Source: Balanoglossus misakiensis
Taxonomy: Eukaryota > Animalia > Hemichordata
Length of the DNA: 64,000 nt
Assembly (NCBI GenBank): GCA_040954595.2
Contig: CM082577.2
Span: 6,657,746 to 6,721,745 of the forward strand
Direction: 5' to 3'
Shown here: positions 14,555 to 64,000 of the stretch, one piece after another
Layout of the letters: every line of letters begins with the position of its first letter
Numbering within the stretch: position 1 is the stretch's first letter
Translations under genes and position numbers: made by a program
Notes under the pieces: model-generated
What the model was told of the DNA's origin: nothing
The model's database searches: none
What the model saw: the letters and a program-made list of their open reading frames with translations, nothing else

Positions 14555-16185
14555 ATGACGTCTTTATGCAGATGCATGAGTTTTACGGTTCGCCACATCA
14601 AACACGTTAACAGGTGAATATACATTTGTGTTGTTTAAACGTGATGATCCAACCTTTTCTAGCTCGCACACACCGATGAAGCCGTGCGCTCATTTACGAC
14701 TAGCGCCTTTTTACGGTGCAGCTGAGTTGTGTGATCACATTCAAGGGTCTATGTTTCACGATCACATACACTGACTTGCAATCGGTGCACCGTATGTAGG
14801 TCAGTCTGTCGGCTGCTACCGGAAACCGGGCATACTCTTTCAGGCATATCAAATTTAACTGACATTAACGCTTGCTGGACAGTAGATGTCATGGTGACGT
14901 AATTATGTAAAAGGTTGATGACCTTCACCCATTTTGGGCGTTTTGATAACTTGACTGTTTGTGTAGTGTCAAGGTTCATGGCTCTGAACATCAAATATCT
15001 TTTTCTTTCTTTCACAGACATGCTGCAGCCATACACAGGGTACAGAGATATTATAACAGTGAACCACTGCCAATGCCAGTAGCAGATGGCGAACGCAAGG
15101 AATATTCTCCCAAAATTACACAATTGGTAGATGATATCTCCAAACTCACAATATCAGAAATTTCAGATCTGAATGAATTATTAAAGGCAAGTATTAATAC
15201 TCTGATATCATTGCCATATTTCACTTTCTTGTTACCAATACTGAAAGGTCCTATTGACTGGTGTGTCCATGTCACCTATTTGAACAGTTTTCCCCAAAAA
15301 TATTTGAGAGACAACTTCTTTGAAGCATTTTGTTGTGTTTTGATGGGAACCACATTCAGTCTGTTATGGCTGTGTCTTCTACCAGCTGCAAATCCCTGCA
15401 AATACTTTTTTCTGCTTACCCTGTAGGTAACATTAAACATACAAGATGCACCGATGATGGTTGCAGGGGCTATGCCAGCTGGCCCGGCAGCTCCAGCAGA
15501 GGTAAGACTATGCGGCAGTCTCGTTGAATTAACAGTGACAGAGTTGTTGAAGCTAAAATGAAAAGTGCTGTCTATACCCGATTTTGCTGTGTGTTACTGT
15601 AAGAATGGGTTTCTGATCTCATTCAAGTCTCTCCATGTTTTGCAGGCAGAGGAGGAGGCAGAGGAACCCAAAGTAGAGAAAACACATTTTACTGTCAAAT
15701 TGACCCAATTTGATGGTACTACCAAAGTTAAACTTATAAAAGAAGTAAAAAGCCTTACCACAGGCATGAATCTTGTACAGGTAAGTTGGGGGCCATCTTG
15801 TAGAGTTCCTCCTACACTCTGGTCCTGACATACATTTTGTATACTAGAATTGTCATCCGGACTCTAGTTCAACAAGGCAACACAAACTAGATCAAACTAA
15901 GCCAATTGCGACCACAGACGCAGTCGCTCAATTTTTGGAGAATTAAGAGAAAATTCAGTCCCGCTCTCCTGAACCAAAACGCAGATCACTTAGACAGTTT
16001 GCTTGTGATCGCATGAAAACAGTCATACAAAAGCTAATGTACAATCATTTCTTTTCTGATTTCTACAGGCCAAAAAATTTGTGGAATCGGTGCCCCAGGT
16101 TGTGAAGGCAGACGTCAGCAAAGCAGAAGCGGAGGAGATGAAAGCGAAACTTGAAGCTGTCGGAGGAACTGCAGTTATAGAATAA
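14555..16185 (+). CDS. MRPL12: Mitochondrial ribosomal protein bL12m
   Basis: Exons 14555-14613, 15018-15186, 15427-15501, 15646-15780 and 16069-16185 encode [16 protein letters not shown]..., [37 protein letters not shown]. Intron 2 has a GC donor. Confidence 0.93.
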
Positions 16186-46748: not shown

Positions 46749-49700
46749 TTAGGCATACAGCTTGAACTGACTATCGATCTCATCCATGCTGCTTTGACCA
46801 AACTTTTCCTCGCTCTGCTTCATCAGATTGTAAATAGCCTCCAGCTGACGGCGCTGCACTCTGTCAAGAGAAAGAAATCAAGGACGGATTGGTGAATGTG
46901 GCCTGCTTATTATCAGCTCGTTTGGATAATTAATAATCTATACGTCATACCCATTATTGCCTCTCTTGTATAATTATTGTAATTTAGCTATAAATGGATA
47001 CAAATTATAATGCACTCCATGTCCCTACAAATAGGTTCACCTAGATAGATGAATACAGAGGAACCAAAGTCAGCGGACACCCTGTCTGGCACAAGCCCTC
47101 TTCAAACTCTGTTTCTCTGCACTGTCAATTCCAACACTTACTCTCGCTCTTCCTCAATCTGGCTTGGTGTCATCTTCTTCTCAATTTGCTTGGTGATGTA
47201 TTTGGCCTTAGCTTGCTTGACTTTTCCCTGGATGTGTTCGGAGTACGTGAGTGGATCCACTACAGCCGGATGGATGGGATCAGCTTCCGTAACTGGTTCG
47301 ATGTCATCAGGGTTCACGATGCAGTCATCCACATTTTCTGTCTCGCTGTCTCTTTCCTCTGTTTCCGCATCGCCCTGGGCCTTGAAAACCAAATCAAAGT
47401 CACAGTGTTATTCTGGGCCATTAGGAAATAATAATACCGTAGTTTGCCGGGTAAGAGCCCCGGGTGCTGGGCCAACAGATTAGCGAAAAAACAGGGGGGG
47501 GCTTTAGCCCGGATATGGCCTCGAGATTTATGCAAATGAGGGATGGCCACCTCGACTTTTATGCACATTTTTGAGTGGTTCATTCTCCGAGTCCAAGTCG
47601 GGATCTTGGGTGTTTCGCGTCGAGGACGGACTGAAGCAGCTCCACGCGGCCGCTTTGGAAAGCTCCCCGGTGACCTCACACGCGGCAGCGCGTCCATCTA
47701 CGTGATCGTTGAATTCGAGGCACGGTCCCGAGGGACCTGTCTGAGGTCATGTTTTCTAGAGCGGCTATATATAACTCAGCGTGGCCAGTCGGCCGCGGTG
47801 GGTACGATAATCAGCGCGAAAGTAAATCATCATACATTTTTTGTTCACTTTTAGTGACTTTGGGGATGAAAATCCGCCTTTTTTGCATTGCACTTTATTA
47901 AATTTCCAAGAATTTAATGGATATTCGGCCGGGGGGGGGGGGGGGGCTTTAGACCGGATATGGCCTCGATCTACAAATGGGCCCTAAAACCAGGGGGGGC
48001 GTTTGTCCGAGCAGGGGCTCTTACCCGGCAAACTACGGTATATGTATATTGCAAAAAAGCTTTTACTCGTTATCTTTTACCACTTGGTGTGAATTACTCG
48101 GGGCTCAGACTTTGATATCAGTATGAAATAATTGCAATGGTGAGAAAAAGTAAACATTTGTGACACAAGAAGGCTTGAATGATTGAATCTGTTTTTAAAA
48201 AGTGATGCTGACAGAACACGTTTTATATCAAGGTTTTTCCACCTTATTTTATTTTGTTTGCTTTGTTTTATGGTGACATTTGTTTCTCATTAGGTTGGCC
48301 TGCATGGCTTCTTCGTTGTCAAGACAAGATAACAGACCCACAACTCTCGGTGGGTGGTCAGGTTCTCCTCTGAATTAAAACTGATTAACGAGGACGCCAA
48401 ACCTTGAAAATCTTCACTCTCTGATGCCAAGTTACCATGGTGACAATCAAAGGAACAATAGAATGCCACGAGAGGTTACGGAAGAGTAAACTTTACTGGG
48501 CTTGAAATTGAAATAATTACGAGTTCACAAGAGAATTGGAAATGTTAACTATCAAATGAGAAAGAATCTTGTTACTGATCAGCAGTATAAGCTGAAATGG
48601 TAAAAGACTTTTATGACATTTATGCATCGATTATTTCCATCTCCTTATTTTAATGGACTGAATGAAAATCTATCCATAAGAGCAGTGATTTTTATAGTCA
48701 TGAACTTCAAACTCATTGACCAATGTACCCCTGTTTTTATTAGTTTGAAGTCATGGTGTCAGAACAAGACAATCAATATCATTATTTGGCCAAAGTTCTA
48801 TTTTGAAATCCTTCATGAGCATCCTTTGTTATTATTGTAGATTTCTAATCCACTACTTGACAAAAACATAACCAAGAGCCATAACAGAAGAAACTCTAGC
48901 ATACGTGCACATCACAATTCAAATCTCCCAGTAGGTCTGCATGTACAATGTATGCTTTGACCTACTTCGTAATTAGCGTTTGTATTATAGCTGGTGAAAT
49001 GAAAGAAAATCTCATAAACACTCATCGTGTAATGAGTAGGTTGCAGGAGTGTCTGTAATTTTACAATTACCTTCTCTCTGGAGAATGGAAAGCTCAATGG
49101 TACTGAATCTCGGAATTACCATTTCAGAATGAATAACAAAGAAAGTACTCCTGAAAGCCTTGATTTTACTGAAAGGACCATTCCTCATCACATCATGATC
49201 AATGGACAGATGAAGTGCTAAGTACAGCCTGAGAACAAATTCTTTTGGAATTATATGGATATTGCTTGAATGAGGCCAACCAAAATTTGAAACACATGCA
49301 TTTTACTTAGAAACAATGGCCCAGCAATACACTTCAAGTCATATTTATGACAGATTCAGAGACAACAGTAATAACTCATATTTGACAGGAAATAATATGG
49401 TAGGTTTTCCATTCCCCAGTAACTCCTTCAGGCCCCAGTATTATACCTTAGAGTTTTGCTGTTGCCATGGATGTGGTCACTGTTGCCAGGCAGTTTTGAG
49501 TAATTGCAAATACTTCTCAAATGGAAGTCTGGATAAATATTTAGCCAAACAGCCAAGATCTCCAATACCAAAACAGTTCTGCAGTTGAAAATTATGCATG
49601 TTAAATTAAAAGGGAAAAAATGCCTAAATCAAGGCAATATTCAGTAAACTTACCCCAATGTCCTTTTGTTTGCTTGCCTGGGGGTCTGGCTGCTCTGCGG

Positions 49701-49824: not shown

Positions 49825-50813
49825 GATGACAATTCCTAGAAAAAGAAAACATAATTTCATCTCATTATTTCACATAGAAAGCAGTTTCCGTTGTCTATAG
49901 CATTTCTAACACACTTTCCTCATTGACCTCAATCCCTTGTGCTGGTGTTATGGATGTGTGAGCTTCACAATTAACTCTTATGACAGTTATTTTGTTCTTC
50001 ACTGAGATTAATAAATAAATTTCCTATCAGATACTGTACAACTATAATGCTAGTGTTACCATTAAATAGAAAACTAAATACTGAGTGACGTGGCATTGCA
50101 TTCCCCGTATATCGTATCCGATATCTCCAGGGAAACGGCGATACTAATATTCTATCGGTAGCCAGTTTCTTTTTTCCGCAGAAAAACGGCATATATTCAC
50201 AAATCTGGTTTACACAAAAACGTTCACTACACTTAAATGTCTTTCATATCGTTATTGAAAACCATACCTATTAAGTAGCGGTGAATATAACTCCGTTTAC
50301 ATCATATTTCTTTCCCGCAGAACGCTGGGGTTGTTCAGCAGCAGAAGAAGCAGTGATTCCAGACGACAAAGCAGAATATTTTGACGTCACTTCCGTATTG
50401 TTGTACCCATAGTGCATCACCCAGAATAATATGGCGGCGCCCATGTGAAAGTTTGGAAGCTGGAAAGTTGATGTTTATTTGCCTCCTTTATACCACATCA
50501 CGGCCCTCTAGGATTTATTAGGTAATGAATAGGTTTTCTCCAGGGTGCGATTGACAAGAAAATAAACGGATGTGGTGCAAGGCAAGGAGTTGGAAGATGC
50601 GGCTCTATCACGATACCATTTGTGCATGTGTACAGCCCTGGTTACGCAACATTGACGCAACAATGGAAGCCATAGAAATGCATGAGCATCCTTTCAAAAC
50701 CGCAGCTGGAGGCCAGGCTACAGTGATCCCCTATTTCCTGTAAGCAAGTTTAAAATCAATTTCTCTGGCTAATTTCTGCTATGTTTTCTGTTCTTTTCTC
50801 AGATGACTGGCTG

Positions 50814-53800
50814 ATGAGAAATACAGTTATTCCTCCAACTCATCTGTTCAGATCTGCTGTAAGAGATTTGACTGTCAAGAAAATAAACAATCTGTTTGGA
50901 TGCAGCTTTGGATGCACACAAAAAGCCTCTGTTTGTACACAAGAGATCGCAAAGAATTATAATAAACACTTTGACAAGGCAGTGTTGAACCACTGCAGGG
51001 TACAGGCTAACTGCAGTAACTGTAGCGTTTTCCGCCTTCTTTTAGCATTTTGACGATATCTAGGCCTTTTTTTGACATTTTGACCCCCCCCCCCCCCCCA
51101 AAAAAAAAAACGAGCTACAATTATTGCAGCTAGGTACAGGCAAGACAGATGGCTAGTGTTAGTCCTGAAATAAGAACTATCGATGGCAAAGACTATTATA
51201 CTATCACTGAAGGAAAAGCTGAAATACTTTTTCCATCTTCAAATGAGGTTTTCTACAATCCAGTTCAAGAATTCAACAGAGACCTTACGTGAGTAAACCA
51301 AATATGATGTCAAGTAGCTTTGTTATTCCCCAAATTTGCAAAAAAAAACGTATATTCACAAAAATTTGCTAAAATAGTTTTTTGGATATTATGCTCTGTA
51401 ATCCTTGGTTGATTGCTGGATTAATGAACTGATTAATTGATTTTCTTCTTGTGTACATTTCAGAGTTGCCGCGATTGGACTTCATGCACAAGAATTTCTA
51501 AGCAAGAAAAACATTCAAGGTATTGCTCTTTTTTAATCACTGAGCTGTGTCTCAGGAAATCTACGCATCATACAATCCAGAAAGAAATGCAAAAACAACT
51601 TATTTATGCAAAAAGTAGTGTTCTGCTACAGAACTTTTCAGTGTAGATTTCCATCACGATGATGCCATAGTGTTTCCAACAGAATTAACTATTTTACAGT
51701 CACATACCCACATAACAGTAATGACAAATCCAAACCAGTGAGAAACCTGGAAAAGTCCACTGGGAACACAGAACCAACATCCCATAGTGAAACAGCCAAT
51801 CAGAGTTCAAAGTCTGCATCACCTGATCCGTCATCAGCCAATGAGAAGACCGAGGAGATAGCTACTGATGTGGCTCCAGTTCAGCCAGGGCAGTATTGTG
51901 AAGTAGGTTTTCTTTGCAACGCCGAAATTTCCACTGGGAAATTGAATTTTAAATTTGTTAATTTGGAGATAAAAGCAACGAATGCTAGATACTAATATCT
52001 TCATGAACGTCTAATGACTTTTATATTGTATATTTCTGCTTCTTTCTCCAAATGTTTACAGATGTAACATCTGCTCACACTAGTATAAGTGATTGCGTAT
52101 CGATTAGTAATATTTGAAGTAATTGGGAGACTAGGAGAGACCACTAATTAGCTGCATTCTTTGCATTTTCTTCACTGAAAACATAAAAGTCAAACAATCT
52201 TTTGATTCTTCTGTTTTAGGATGGCATATCTATCTTGGAGGGCCTCTCGGCATCAGGTCTGAGATCCATTCGTTTCGCAAAGGAGATTGCCGGAGTGAAG
52301 GAAGTTGTTGCGAATGACATTGTCGCTGAAGCTGTGCAGTCTATCCAACAGAATGTGAAGCACAACAAAACTGAACACTTGGTCAAGCCAAGCCATGATG
52401 ATGCCGCGTAAGTACTTAATATGAACCAAGAGTCTCAACTGTAGGGGTCCCCCCATGCTGGAACCATTTGCTTTCATTTAAAATAACTTTCTCTGGGTGA
52501 AAATTAGTTTTGAAAAACAAGTGTCTCGGTGAAAACTTGTTATCTCAGTGACTTTTTCAGATCCCAAATTTAGATTTGGAAGGGTGATTTTTCCAAAATA
52601 TATCTGATAAATGTATTCCACTTAACTAGAAAATGGCTTGCACTTTGGGATTTTGTCTTCACAGATTACTCATGTATAAACACAGAGGTCACAATGATCG
52701 ATATGATATTATTGACCTTGACCCCTATGGAAGTCCTGCACAGTTTCTGGACTCGGCAGTTCAGTCAGTCAAAGATGGTGGAATGATGTGTATCACCTGT
52801 ACTGACATGGCGGTGCTGTGTGGTAACCATGGCGAGACGGCATACACCAAGTATGGTGGAATGGCACTGCATACCAAATATGGTCATGAAATGGTGAGTG
52901 CCGGTATATCTCTAGTTTATTTTTATACTGGTAAAATCTGAGAGAATGTAAGGAAACGACGTTGTGTGCAAGTTTCTAATTTTCCTTGTAGTTTTAGAAG
53001 AATTACAAGTATCATATCAGATAGTGAAAGCACAGAAACAGAACAAGGCCTTTGTAAACAGCGCCCTCCTGTGTTCACTTTCAGGCTCTGAGGATCGTTT
53101 TGCAGTCCATCCAGTCACACGCAAACCGTTACCACAGATACATCGAGCCATTGCTCTGCATCAGTGTGGACTTCTATGTCAGGTTTTTCATCAGGGTGTA
53201 CTCTGGACAAGCAACAGTCAAGAGATCAGCCAGGTATGGTGTCTGTCTTCCTTCATGAAAAGTTCTAAATTTTGCGTTTGTTTGTCAAGTAGCAAAGAGA
53301 AATCTGGCAGATATGAAATGATTAGCCCTTTTTGACAATTTATATTTACAACTAGCTGTATGCCAGTTAATATTTTGTCTGTGTCATGTGTATCAAGACT
53401 GGTTTCTACTTGTCAAAATATGCTGACAAAGGACACAACCAGAAGGCACCCATCATCTTTGCAAGGCTATTCACAATGGATATTTTGCGTACCCCTACTA
53501 TGCAAACGATGATGATGTGTTCCATTATCCTTGATTCTGTCTTGCAGCAAACAGGCAATGGTCTACAACTGTGTCAACTGTGAAACATTTCACTTGCAAA
53601 GACTTGGCGTATGCATTGAAAATAATAGAAGGTAAGGTTTACATGCTTAACATCACAATTGTCATGAAACCCACCCTTTTCACACCATATTTTAGTCAGA
53701 TCCTATTGTTCCCCATGATCAAGTTGGACCAGCACACTTGGAAATGGGGTACTGTGTACTATGCAAATAAAAAATCTATCTAGAAAGTTTATAATTTCGT

Positions 53801-56075
53801 GTTTCCTTTACTCTGCTCTCTTATCAATTTTTCTGTAAATAAAAAATAAAGATCACATTTTCTTTCTTGCTTGTTCTATATTAATTGGTTATCAAAACAG
53901 TGTACTAACACATCTAAATACACTCCTTTCCCCTTTAGCATAAAATATCGGCCCTCAGTTGGACCCCCTGTCGGACAAACATGTGAACACTGTGGTGGAA
54001 AATTTCAGGTAATAACACTTACTTGGAATCTGTAAAGTTTATCACTAGTGAGTTAAATCACAGGAAACAACCCACAAATGTGCAAAAATTTGCCTTTTCA
54101 GATCGGTGGACCGATGTGGGCTGAACCACTCCACAATGCTGATTTTGTTGCCAAATTACTGAAGACTGTGCAGAAGAACCCGGATAGATTCAAGACGTCA
54201 GATAGAATCATCGGTGTATTGAGTGTTGTCGGGGAGGTGAGTGAATAGTTTGAATTAGTGGCAAGGACGAGTTTGGGGTCAGATTGGCAGGAGAGGATAT
54301 TGCAAACTTTGAATCAATACATACAAAATGTGCTGGGCTACTGGGCATAGCAGGTTTCGTTTATTGAGACAAACAGTCTCTGTCATCAGATGCAAAATTA
54401 GAAGCTGCTGTGTTTTTCGGGGACAGAGACTACACTGTTGACATGTGCTATGTTATCTTCACAGGAACTGCTTGACTGTCCGCTATACTATACTCTTAGT
54501 CGGCTTTGTAACATTCTCCATTGCAGCTGTCCATCCCTCATTCAATTCAGGTATGTGTCAAGTGTAATGACGTGTCGTTACATGATTCATGATATTTTCC
54601 AATCTTGAACTTCAAGTTGAAGTATGCTCTTACCTCATGTTTCCATAGTTTCACCATTCCATTTTTTCTGTAAAAATGTAATATCCTTCCATATTTGTGG
54701 CTGTTAAAATTGTATTTGTAATTTTCTTGTGACAGGTCAGCCATTTTACACGCTGGATACAAGGTGTCCAGTACACACGCAAACCCAGAGGCCTTCAAGA
54801 CAGATGCACCCAGCCGTGTGATCTGGGACATCATGAGAGCATGGGTGAGTGGTAGCCATGTCTTTGCTGGGACTTGGGGTTTAAGGGGAATGCTTACATG
54901 TACATGTAGATGTGTATTGGGAAAGATGATAGCTTCTTTGTGATGGTATCTTGTTTAATAGCCTGACTCAGTATCATTATGACATCCATATGCAGGTTAA
55001 GCTGAATCCAGTGAAGCAGGAGAGATTGACAGATGGAAATCCTGCAACCAGAATACTTAGCAAAGAACCAAGGTCAGGCTCTGGGACAGTCACATGTATT
55101 TCTTGTGTATAAACTTCCTCAAAAAATATTACAAACATTTCAAAATGATTGTTAAATGCCAGGGTTTCACAATTTTAAGTTATGGTAATCCTTGATCCAT
55201 GTGGTATACATTATATATTTATATTTGTGGTGTTGTTTGCATGCTTATGTTGCAATTATTATGATGACCTTTTTGACAACTGTTACCAATATAGGAAACA
55301 ACTTTAACATTACAGCACAGAAGTGTCTTTCAGTCCACTACCAACTGCAAATCCACCATCAAGAAAATTCAAACTTGTCAGGTTTCAAGAAAATCCACAG
55401 AAGTACTGGGGGCCCAAAGCAAGAGCGAAGAGATCGTAAGTTGTGTCCTGTCATATCTCATTTGAAGTGTATTTGTTCCAAATTAACATGGTGTATTTTC
55501 TGATGTCAGACTTCTTTTATCATGTTTTTGTGAATTTGCGATTTTCAAAGAAATTCCTTTTGCTATGACAGAGTTGCAGAACCGCTTTCTGATAAAAGAG
55601 CCAGATTGCAAGGCAAACGTGCACAGGAAGGTCAAGTGGAGAGGGACTACAAGAAATATCCATGTAAAAAATTCAAAAAGGTAAATGAGAAAGTCTTATG
55701 CAACAATGGAGGTCCATTAGTTTACAGACATTTCCAGAGTTTTTGGTTAGACCACGTCACTTGAGTGACCGTGGTTACCGGTAGATTAGATTTTTCATCA
55801 ATGGGAAATTGTATAACGCGTCTCCATGTGTATAGATCAGATGGATTTATGGAATGTGTCATATTGATAAAATGGCAAGATCTACAATGTCGTTTTTGCA
55901 CCTGTGTGATTGTAAATACGATGCTTGAAGTCAACTACACACATGCTATGCTAAATGTTTATATTGAAAATCCGACATCTGATGTTACATTTTCATAATC
56001 ATTTACTTTTTTTTACAGGGTTTGTGTGATCTTGGTGATGACTGCAGATATACCCATGATTCCTCTTCGGAGTAG
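50814..56075 (+). CDS. TRMT1: tRNA (guanine-26 N2,N2)-dimethyltransferase with C-terminal CCCH zinc finger; upstream ATG 50814, downstream ATG 51149
   Basis: [77 protein letters not shown] and [19 protein letters not shown]; stop TAG at 56073-56075. The upstream start is inferred. Confidence 0.92.
51008..51132. mobile_element. 125-bp TIR element with 9-bp TSD (Mutator-like MITE) forming a TRMT1 intron
   Basis: TSD GGTACAGGC at 50999-51007 and 51133-51141. Left end TAACTGCAGTAACTGTAGCGTTTT versus reverse complement of right end TAGCTGCAATAATTGTAGCTCGTTTT. Confidence 0.8.
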
Positions 56076-62300: not shown

Positions 62301-62846
62301 GCAAGTGCTTTTTACAAAATAATGTTGCCTCAAACAAAATAAACATTCTATTTGTGGACACAATTTCTGGCCAGGATGTGGATGTTTCCTCAACCAGGAT
62401 AGCATGGACTGAGCAGAATCAATGTATAGTGTTGATATAATGAATGAATGCAAGTGATATGTTCACAATGCTAAATATCAAAAAGTACAAATAATTGAAA
62501 TTTCCATAATTAGTGTTACTGTAATCAAATGAAAGTATATATACAATGATGAAACTGATACCACATGTATTTTGATGAGGTCAGTTCATTACAGGATGTG
62601 TCCAGGGTTGTTGCAAAAGTGTGTTTCTGTATTTTTTCTCTATACTGTGTCTCTGTACAAGCTTCCACCCTGAAAGACTATGATTTTATTTGCAGTCAAT
62701 TTTATGAAGAATGGGCTTTTCTTCTGGACGAGGAGAGGTCCAGTATGTTACCCATGATGGCTGCCGGGTTAGGCTCTATACTCTTTGCCATTAACATTGA
62801 CAATGAACAGCTGAATGGTGGGAGGCAGGTGAGTACATGGAACAGA

Positions 62847-62881
<35 letters not shown>

Positions 62882-64000
62882 AAACTCTATTTTTCAGGTA
62901 GTTTTAACATTTTGGTCAATCACATAATACTGACAAGTGTGATAAGAATTGAAAAGTAGTGTTATCTGTAAAGATTAGTGTCGGTAGCTACAAGAAAATA
63001 TCAACTCTTATCAAATTACATGAACATAATTTTTTTTATATCTTATATGCTAAAAATCTGTGTTTAATTTGATCAGTCTTAACAATATGATTTGTTTTTG
63101 ACTACATTATATCTTGTAATTTAAGTGCAGTTTTCGTCAACTATCTCCCACCTCACACAGATTATACAAATCCCCATGTAATGTAGGAGCGTACTCATTC
63201 CATTTCATTATAATTTAATGCCTGACTGCACAGACGGTCTACACATGCAACGCTGCTTAAAAGATTAACTTTAACATGCAATTTTTCATTCTGTGATACA
63301 TACAAACATAAATAACTGAAATGGAAAAAAACTGAGCTAAATGTAGACTGGACAAATGCCACACAATCTTTATAATATTCTTGATTTGCTTTGATGTTGC
63401 ATAGGTGTCGTCAACTCACAGTTCTCCATCGCATCAAAGCAAACTTGCCAGTAGAGTTGCTGATGAACCCCAACCGGTCTATCCGGGCGATATCCTCATC
63501 AATGGTAAGCAGATCCATGGTTGCTTCCCAAAACTGTGTCTGCAATTTTTCCACTGGCCTTCCAATCAACATTTAAGTTTAATGATGCTATAACTTCTTT
63601 TTACCAACATTGCGCTTTTGTATATTGCCTTCATCAGAAAAAATGTGTGTCATGTTATCTCTGTTTAAATAATGGTTATGTACTGTACATGATTGGGTTC
63701 ACCTGTATCTGGGCTTTCAGAGAATATATACTTTCTGGGGGTTTTGAACTGTCTTAGTTCTATTTGACAGAAATTTACAATTCCCGAAGTGTGTATATTG
63801 CATGTCATATAATGTTGCTCTGTGTGGTTTGTTGGCCGTTGTATAAGTAACAATGATTTGGTTCTCTTATTCATTCCAGAAGCATCAAAGGAGAGAAAGA
63901 AAGACAAAAAGAAAAAGAAGAAGAAAGGAGTTGCAATTGTGTCCTTTGATGGCACACAATCAAAATCCTACAGGGATTCCTACTCTGCTTCACAGGGGTC
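59353..64000 (+). CDS. SNX29: Sorting nexin 29 (RUN domain N-terminus), 3'-incomplete
   Basis: Exons 59353-59356, 59895-60093 (LLDRLLDAVKQCQVRFGGRTELATDGDSRVSCLCAQFE), 60475-60533, 61971-62145 (GRGRAWLRSALNEHSLERY), 62696-62828 (FYEEWAFLLDEERSSMLPMMAAGL), ~63405-63504 and 63880 to the window end. Confidence 0.92.

Follow-up and report, generated by a model that had tools for sequence, protein, structure and literature searches.

A polymorphic MITE insertion at the 5′ end of an acorn-worm TRMT1 gene and its nominal, empty-site-restoring intron

The TRMT1 gene of an acorn worm carries, close to its conserved start codon, a 125-bp element with inverted ends that lies between two copies of a 9-bp sequence. 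A 134-nt segment that starts with GT and ends with AG can be taken out of this structure so as to leave the sequence of the uninterrupted site. This raises the question of whether the element is removed from the transcripts as an intron, as had been proposed from a reading of the sequence alone, or whether it is an ordinary transposon insertion that the transcripts mostly keep. We have addressed this question in the 64,000-nucleotide stretch of DNA that carries the gene (the window, 64 kb), in contigs from sequencing runs, and in orthologous proteins.

The element, its empty site and its class

The coordinates of the element and of its surroundings are given in Table 1. The direct repeat, or target site duplication (TSD), is perfect, and its 9-mer was found in the 64-kb window only in these two places. 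Ten different cuts would restore the empty-site sequence; one of them has GT..AG ends (51000-51133) and one has GC..AG ends (51006-51139). The terminal inverted repeats (TIRs), described in the sequence-only reading as imperfect and about 25 bp long, are indeed imperfect, and their length had been overstated: they span 19 bp when aligned without gaps (16/19 complementary) and reach about 25 bp only with a 2-nt gap. The TIR pattern gave 2 matches, with 0.01 expected by chance, and of the 825 pairs of identical 9-mers that occur in the window at spacings of 60-1500 nt, the pair flanking this element was the only one whose ends were complementary at 12 or more of 19 positions. Based on these two results and on the empty site found in DNA, we have rejected a chance repeat as the origin of the TSD/TIR structure.

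The element has TA...TA ends, an internal 21-nt direct repeat and C16 and A11 runs, and is free of ATG on the + strand. A second copy was not found in the 64-kb window, where the only matches were to poly-C, and Rfam returned 0 matches for positions 50300-51400. A scan of the window for TSD/TIR structures that required an exact 8-mer in both arms misses the element and is thus no census. Elsewhere in the window we have observed an unrelated 602-bp TIR element (47437-48038; perfect inverted arms of 28 bp, a flanking TA at either end, internal 31-nt direct repeat), a Tc1/mariner-like MITE that apparently lies in an intron of a minus-strand gene, and a long inverted repeat (21995-22127) in which an (ATG)n tract precedes a (CAT)n tract.

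Table 1. Positions, within the window, of the features in and around the TRMT1 insertion
Feature	Position	Strand	Remarks
Predicted first coding exon of TRMT1	50803..51288	+	486 nt with the element, 352 without
62-codon basic extension (putative mitochondrial presequence in the long isoform)	50814..50999	+	Frame open in the second haplotype
Left TSD copy	50999..51007	+	Nominal GT donor at 51000 inside; single copy in empty-site contigs
Nominal 134-nt GT..AG intron restoring the empty site	51000..51133	+	Predicted; weak splice sites
125-bp non-autonomous TIR element (MITE)	51008..51132	.	Multicopy; missing from the second haplotype
Left TIR, 19 bp	51008..51026	+	31-mers match high-depth contigs with no other letters
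TGA that stops the long frame when the element stays in the RNA	51051..51053	+	235 nt before the next exon junction
Right TIR, 16/19 complementary	51114..51132	-	Includes the competing CAG 51127-51129
Right TSD copy	51133..51141	+	Its first G is the second letter of the nominal AG; another AG, in frame, at 51138-51139
TRMT1 (tRNA G26 dimethyltransferase) CDS from the conserved Met	51149..56075	+	TRM domain PF02005

The empty site was looked for in contigs from three runs of one sample, all of them probably DNA; this sample may be the window's own source and gives no independent support for an allele frequency. DNA contigs of two runs (X1 and X2) carried the site, with 50998 joined to 51133, 134 nt skipped, 9 letters that fit either side of the joint, and a single copy of the 9-mer. 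Since the empty site is present as DNA, the insertion is polymorphic. An old orthologous intron and a fixed intron gain are both ruled out by this empty allele. The contigs thus bore out, together with the window, the proposed 125-bp element between perfect 9-bp repeats as well as its recent insertion, and the claim that the 134-nt cut restores the pre-insertion sequence held on the sequence.

The haplotype with the empty site departs from the window at several SNPs, through a deletion of 11 nt at 50644 and through an additional 21-nt segment near 50963-50968. The window haplotype lacks this segment and is marked by the bases C, A, C and C at positions 50892, 50904, 50926 and 50948, respectively; SNPs between the two haplotypes also lie at 51235 and 51268. 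Deeper in TRMT1, both runs hold contigs identical to the window beside contigs with 11 differences (depths of 9.6 and 30.5 in X1, and of 10.7 and 11.7 in X2), and the sample therefore has two haplotypes. None of the contig pieces listed bridged the filled junction (best 20 of 60 and 20 of 38), as expected because contigs break at repeats; hence, the filled allele rests on the assembly of the window. For comparison, the genome of Ptychodera flava is reported to have 1.3% heterozygosity and frequent indels (PMC4729200). The P. flava TRMT1 protein is colinear across the insertion site, in a comparison made at the protein level.

The 31-mers from the 5′ part of the element had a depth of 470-842 in X1 and of 2858 in X2, with most flanking contigs at about 10-40 (X2 flanks reach 136 and more). 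This implies tens of copies or more, depth being no direct copy number. Four other left flanks of the element were seen as loose contig ends, and for one of these four the whole element was followed by a right flank opening with the 9-mer of its left flank, a second 9-bp TSD, read from two overlapping contigs joined by inference. The second contig comparison passed over the 3′ half of the element as repetitive and accordingly yielded no right flanks. Other genomic copies, as the sequence-only reading had supposed, were thus found. Directly outside the left end, C accounted for 470/800 of the depth, a possible target preference. Two metagenome matches to a 20-mer of the left TIR were taken as chance, since in the 40 bases that follow they agreed with the element at 14 and 7 positions.

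With its TIRs, a TSD that is single at the empty site, and a short, non-coding sequence dispersed in many copies, the element is a young, multicopy, non-autonomous DNA transposon (MITE) with a 9-bp TSD. The length of the TSD had been taken as the mark of a Mutator element. We have rejected this classification because AcademH TSDs are also 9-10 bp, those of MuDR-related elements being 4-10 bp (PMC10045372); a 9-bp TSD agrees with AcademH (9-10 bp) as well as with Mutator/MULE (about 9 bp). Like AcademH and Mutator MITEs, the element is short, non-coding, multicopy and polymorphic, with TIRs and a 9-bp TSD at two loci. A transposase-bearing partner was not found within the 64-kb window, where 27/27 stop-to-stop ORFs of at least 120 aa gave 0 Pfam hits to a transposase. 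An autonomous AcademH partner would encode an Academ transposase and helicase and have the TIRs in common with the element. Mutator/MULE elements typically have long TIRs, G..C ends and a MuDR-type transposase partner; the TIRs here measure 19 bp and the ends are TA..TA. The TA..TA ends presumably fit Academ better than Mutator, and suggest an Academ affiliation. Pfam also gave hints of a mitochondrial-type ribosomal L12 N-terminus (14950-15423), of the RNA polymerase III subunit RPC5 (19091-19591) and of a RUN domain (62559-62924) elsewhere in the window.

TRMT1 and its N-terminal extension

Our hand-built TRMT1 model, taken from ATG 51149, has 15 exons separated by 14 GT..AG introns that are 93-338 nt long; its product is an intact protein of 603 aa. 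For one of its exons the closest matches were P. flava (91%), Saccoglossus kowalevskii (86%) and Glandiceps talaboti (82%), followed by matches of 70% or less, which places the host among the enteropneust hemichordates. The predicted first coding exon is bounded by a strong acceptor at 50802 (11.1 bits) and a strong donor at 51289 (8.6 bits). The 5′ end of the gene likely lies in 50420-50802, a region with the motif ATGGCGGCG at 50431, which we take to be YY1-like, donors at 50522 and 50740, and the strong acceptor at 50802. A minus-strand gene appears to begin just upstream of TRMT1, which suggests a shared promoter. Joining the donors 50522, 50545 or 50740 to 50803 added no in-frame ATG.

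The GT..AG cut puts ATG 50814 in frame with ATG 51149, with 62 codons preceding the cut, and with the element kept in the RNA the frame from ATG 50814 ends at the TGA of Table 1. Both points, made in the sequence-only reading, proved correct. The same reading had placed a basic exon ahead of the conserved enzyme start, and basic extensions of 54-82 residues do precede the conserved Met in 3/3 hemichordate orthologues. The P. flava TRMT1 models comprise long forms (isoforms X1 and X2) and a short one (isoform X3) that starts at the conserved Met. In the window, the upstream frame is free of stops for 65 codons, a length reached in 195/20000 shuffles. Three of the five SNPs of the second haplotype in this frame are synonymous, and the one indel between haplotypes within the extension, of 21 nt, keeps the frame and brings in no stop (by eye); the indels flanking the extension measure 11, 7, 1 and a 1+2+1 cluster, the non-coding ones not being multiples of three. 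A short similar sequence stands at both ends of the 50963-50968 indel, and its longer form is by eye closer to P. flava; the window haplotype has probably lost the 21-nt segment.

An ungapped comparison with P. flava, anchored at the conserved Met and running across the insertion site, gave 6/15 identical residues (p about 2e-4, for a length picked after looking; the 10 upstream residues alone give p 0.01-0.02). The local alignment of the whole extension to P. flava was not significant (749/5000 shuffles as good), and BLASTP with the extension found nothing. The insertion site is probably coding, judging from the frame and its variants. The first 40 residues of the extension carry a net charge of +5 and have a hydrophobic moment of 0.73, the values for the orthologue extensions being +5 to +9 and 0.52-0.79, and those for the short start -3 and 0.43. 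In charge and amphipathicity, the extension is thus predicted to resemble a mitochondrial presequence.

In these respects TRMT1 has in common with the dual-targeted Trm1/TRMT1 enzymes (those of yeasts, and the human one with its N-terminal targeting sequence) an upstream in-frame AUG and a basic extension before the conserved Met (10.1101/2023.04.12.536578). The same source reports that yeast Trm1 has long mitochondrial and short nuclear isoforms, the short form also modifying mitochondrial tRNAs, and that the switch between them in budding and fission yeast lies in alternative transcription starts.

Splice signals at the nominal intron

How much weight the exact fit can bear depends on how often it arises by chance. 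For an element that ends in this way and makes a 9-bp TSD, an exact GT..AG fit would result at 3.7% of window positions and at 164/3388 (4.8%) of the position-orientations in TRMT1 exons. With a chance rate of about 4-5%, the fit is a one-in-25 coincidence and no signature.

The splice sites were scored with matrices from 18 host introns, 14 of TRMT1 and 4 of the ribosomal protein L10 gene; these matrices are crude, and the plausible donors 50740 and 50859 scored below zero. The L10 gene (56630-58720, minus strand) has five coding exons and lies tail to tail with TRMT1. The donor at 51000 reached 1.7 bits, with 1/18 real donors lower and 11/97 exonic decoys as high. It matches the complement of U1 at 4/9 positions (5-8 for the 14 TRMT1 donors) and has neither +5G nor -2A, a combined lack seen in 0/18 host donors. 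As its sequence is also in the empty allele, we infer that it must be ignored there. The acceptor at 51133 scored -0.2 bits (1/18 real acceptors lower), and some host acceptors are also weak, with leave-one-out scores down to -3.0. Four bases upstream of it, the CAG at 51129 scored 3.1 bits and would shift the frame; another AG within 18 nt was seen at 0/18 host acceptors. This agrees with the weak acceptor and competing CAG that had been pointed out in the earlier reading. A TIR hairpin is predicted (z -3.1), in which the last 13 nt before the AG are 5% unpaired.

Other properties would suit an intron: a C-run and words resembling branch points are found 51-81 nt ahead of the AG, and the length of 134 nt falls inside the host range of 93-338 nt. 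Acceptors in frame are found at 51133, 51139 and 51148. Within the element, a pyrimidine-rich stretch with an AG at 51045 (51028-51045) could serve upstream donors, with part of the presequence being skipped. At the other insertion flanks an exact GT..AG was found in 0/4, on either strand and by eye, with one GC..AG and ~0.3 expected by chance; this speaks only against a family whose copies are mostly introns. Since the product of exact splicing equals the empty-allele sequence, unphased junction reads are uninformative in a carrier of both alleles.

Retention, splicing and the alternatives

On balance we favor, with modest confidence, a young MITE in one TRMT1 allele that is mostly retained in transcripts and not exactly spliced. 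The element has inserted, with its 9-bp TSD, into the stretch of one allele predicted to encode the leader of the long isoform. The flanking sites 50802 and 51289 would define a single exon containing the element, and the strength of these two ends favors retention. Translation started at ATG 50814 would then run into the TGA at 51051-51053, whose distance from the next junction makes it a likely trigger of NMD; minor cuts at CAG 51129 would shift the frame, and a small in-frame spliced fraction may accompany retention. The short enzyme from ATG 51149 would keep its sequence untouched. The filled allele would hence amount to a partial loss of the long, probably mitochondrial, isoform with the short one preserved. 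Two circumstances would make such a loss tolerable: the second allele is intact, and the short Trm1 of yeasts can enter mitochondria as well.

The rival closest to the original proposal takes the element as a nascent spliceosomal intron, born in a single event and segregating by presence and absence, in which cuts between the 51000 donor and the acceptor AG (51132-51133) would be frequent enough to restore the long isoform exactly. Exact restoration, a site within the coding extension, the empty allele, the intron-like length and the branch-point-like words all fit it, and a geometry in which both splice sites come from the TSD has been described for Introners (PMC9860276). Moreover, survival in a coding part of a housekeeping gene enriches for spliceable cases, so that the prior for splicing lies above 4-5%. 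We nevertheless consider it unlikely, given a weak donor, an acceptor that is outscored by its neighbor and buried in a hairpin, a fit expected by chance in 4-5% of cases, and an insertion that is not fixed, for which selection for splicing need not have acted. It is likewise doubtful that an animal intron has here been caught at birth, as a segregating copy that is exactly spliced and whose partial efficiency sets the allele's mitochondrial versus nuclear TRMT1. The working intron tuning the two isoforms, as put forward in the sequence-only reading, thus found no support: an exact fit arises by chance at 3.7-4.8%, the splice sites score near decoys and the allele is not fixed.

Removal need not involve the spliceosome. 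In SOS splicing, paired inverted repeats lead to an imprecise excision that is heterogeneous, mostly non-GT-AG and dependent on AKAP17A, CAAP1 and RTCB, and that, when tested in C. elegans, freed 90-100% of the mRNAs from their TIR elements (PMC12779559). Such efficiency means that retention may be the wrong reading even if the spliceosome ignores the element. The insertion has in common with the reported substrates (derived from C. elegans Tc1, Tc3, Tc4 and Tc5A; PMC12779559) a predicted exonic position, inverted repeats predicted to pair and a poorly conserved protein region, in which mixed in-frame and out-of-frame junctions and their scars would be tolerated. However, its TIRs are much shorter and imperfect (19 bp with 3 mismatches, against 54 nt for Tc1 among the tested ITRs), and the same paper leaves the ITR features needed open; we regard this route as rather improbable. 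It seems more improbable still that the insertion is effectively neutral, the region being 5′ UTR or intron in most transcripts, whether because little of the long isoform is made or because upstream donors use acceptors at 50851-50982, 51045 or 51129-51148. ATG 50814 has C, no purine, at -3 and is preceded by the out-of-frame ATG 50803 (ATG 51149 has C at -3 and G at +4), several AGs between 50851 and 50982 have scores like those of real acceptors, and the non-significant whole-extension searches and the P. flava isoform starting at the conserved Met point the same way; against them stand the 65 stop-free codons, the in-frame 21-nt indel and the 6/15 residues in register with P. flava.

The last rival places the element in an Introner family, so far undescribed, that would regularly create introns across the host genome. 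The nominal intron has in common with TIR-derived Introners (the Huff-type MITE introners of Micromonas and Aureococcus, and the Florenciella type co-opting both sites) a TIR and a TSD, splice dinucleotides in the TSD, an intron equal to the element plus one TSD and an mRNA that splicing would leave unchanged (PMC9860276, PMC12130899, PMC11282704), and the insertion is missing from the allelic site. Introners that take splice sites from TSDs are described in two of these sources (PMC9860276, PMC11282704). The element is also multicopy and young, and next to any TSD that begins with G its terminal A supplies the first letter of an AG. In contrast to Introner families, with many copies annotated as spliced introns, it offers one nominal fit: neither splice site is whole within the element, the 64-kb window holds no second copy, and members forming whole introns were not seen at the four other flanks (0/4 exact GT..AG, one GC..AG, by eye, in a small sample with only one TSD seen on both sides). 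A 2025 survey reports one sea-urchin Introner family, non-LTR and with 4 members, and 0 families in Saccoglossus (PMC12130899); Ptychodera was not found in 12/14 of its supplement files, and a literature search on hemichordate Introners found none, an unrelated Copia-element match aside. An intron-generating family is thus unsupported, and we judge it very improbable.

The insertion belongs to a known class, that of polymorphic MITEs, and has Introner geometry. Under our best reading, retention, it is an ordinary case of such a MITE, whose likely effect is to weaken one isoform on a single allele. Its value is that of a test case, since the empty allele and the nearby phasing variants can separate retention, exact spliceosomal removal and SOS-type removal, and linked variants within 40-110 nt allow splicing efficiency to be followed allele by allele in one animal. 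Exact splicing, if true, would make this a rare segregating transposon-made intron in a deuterostome.
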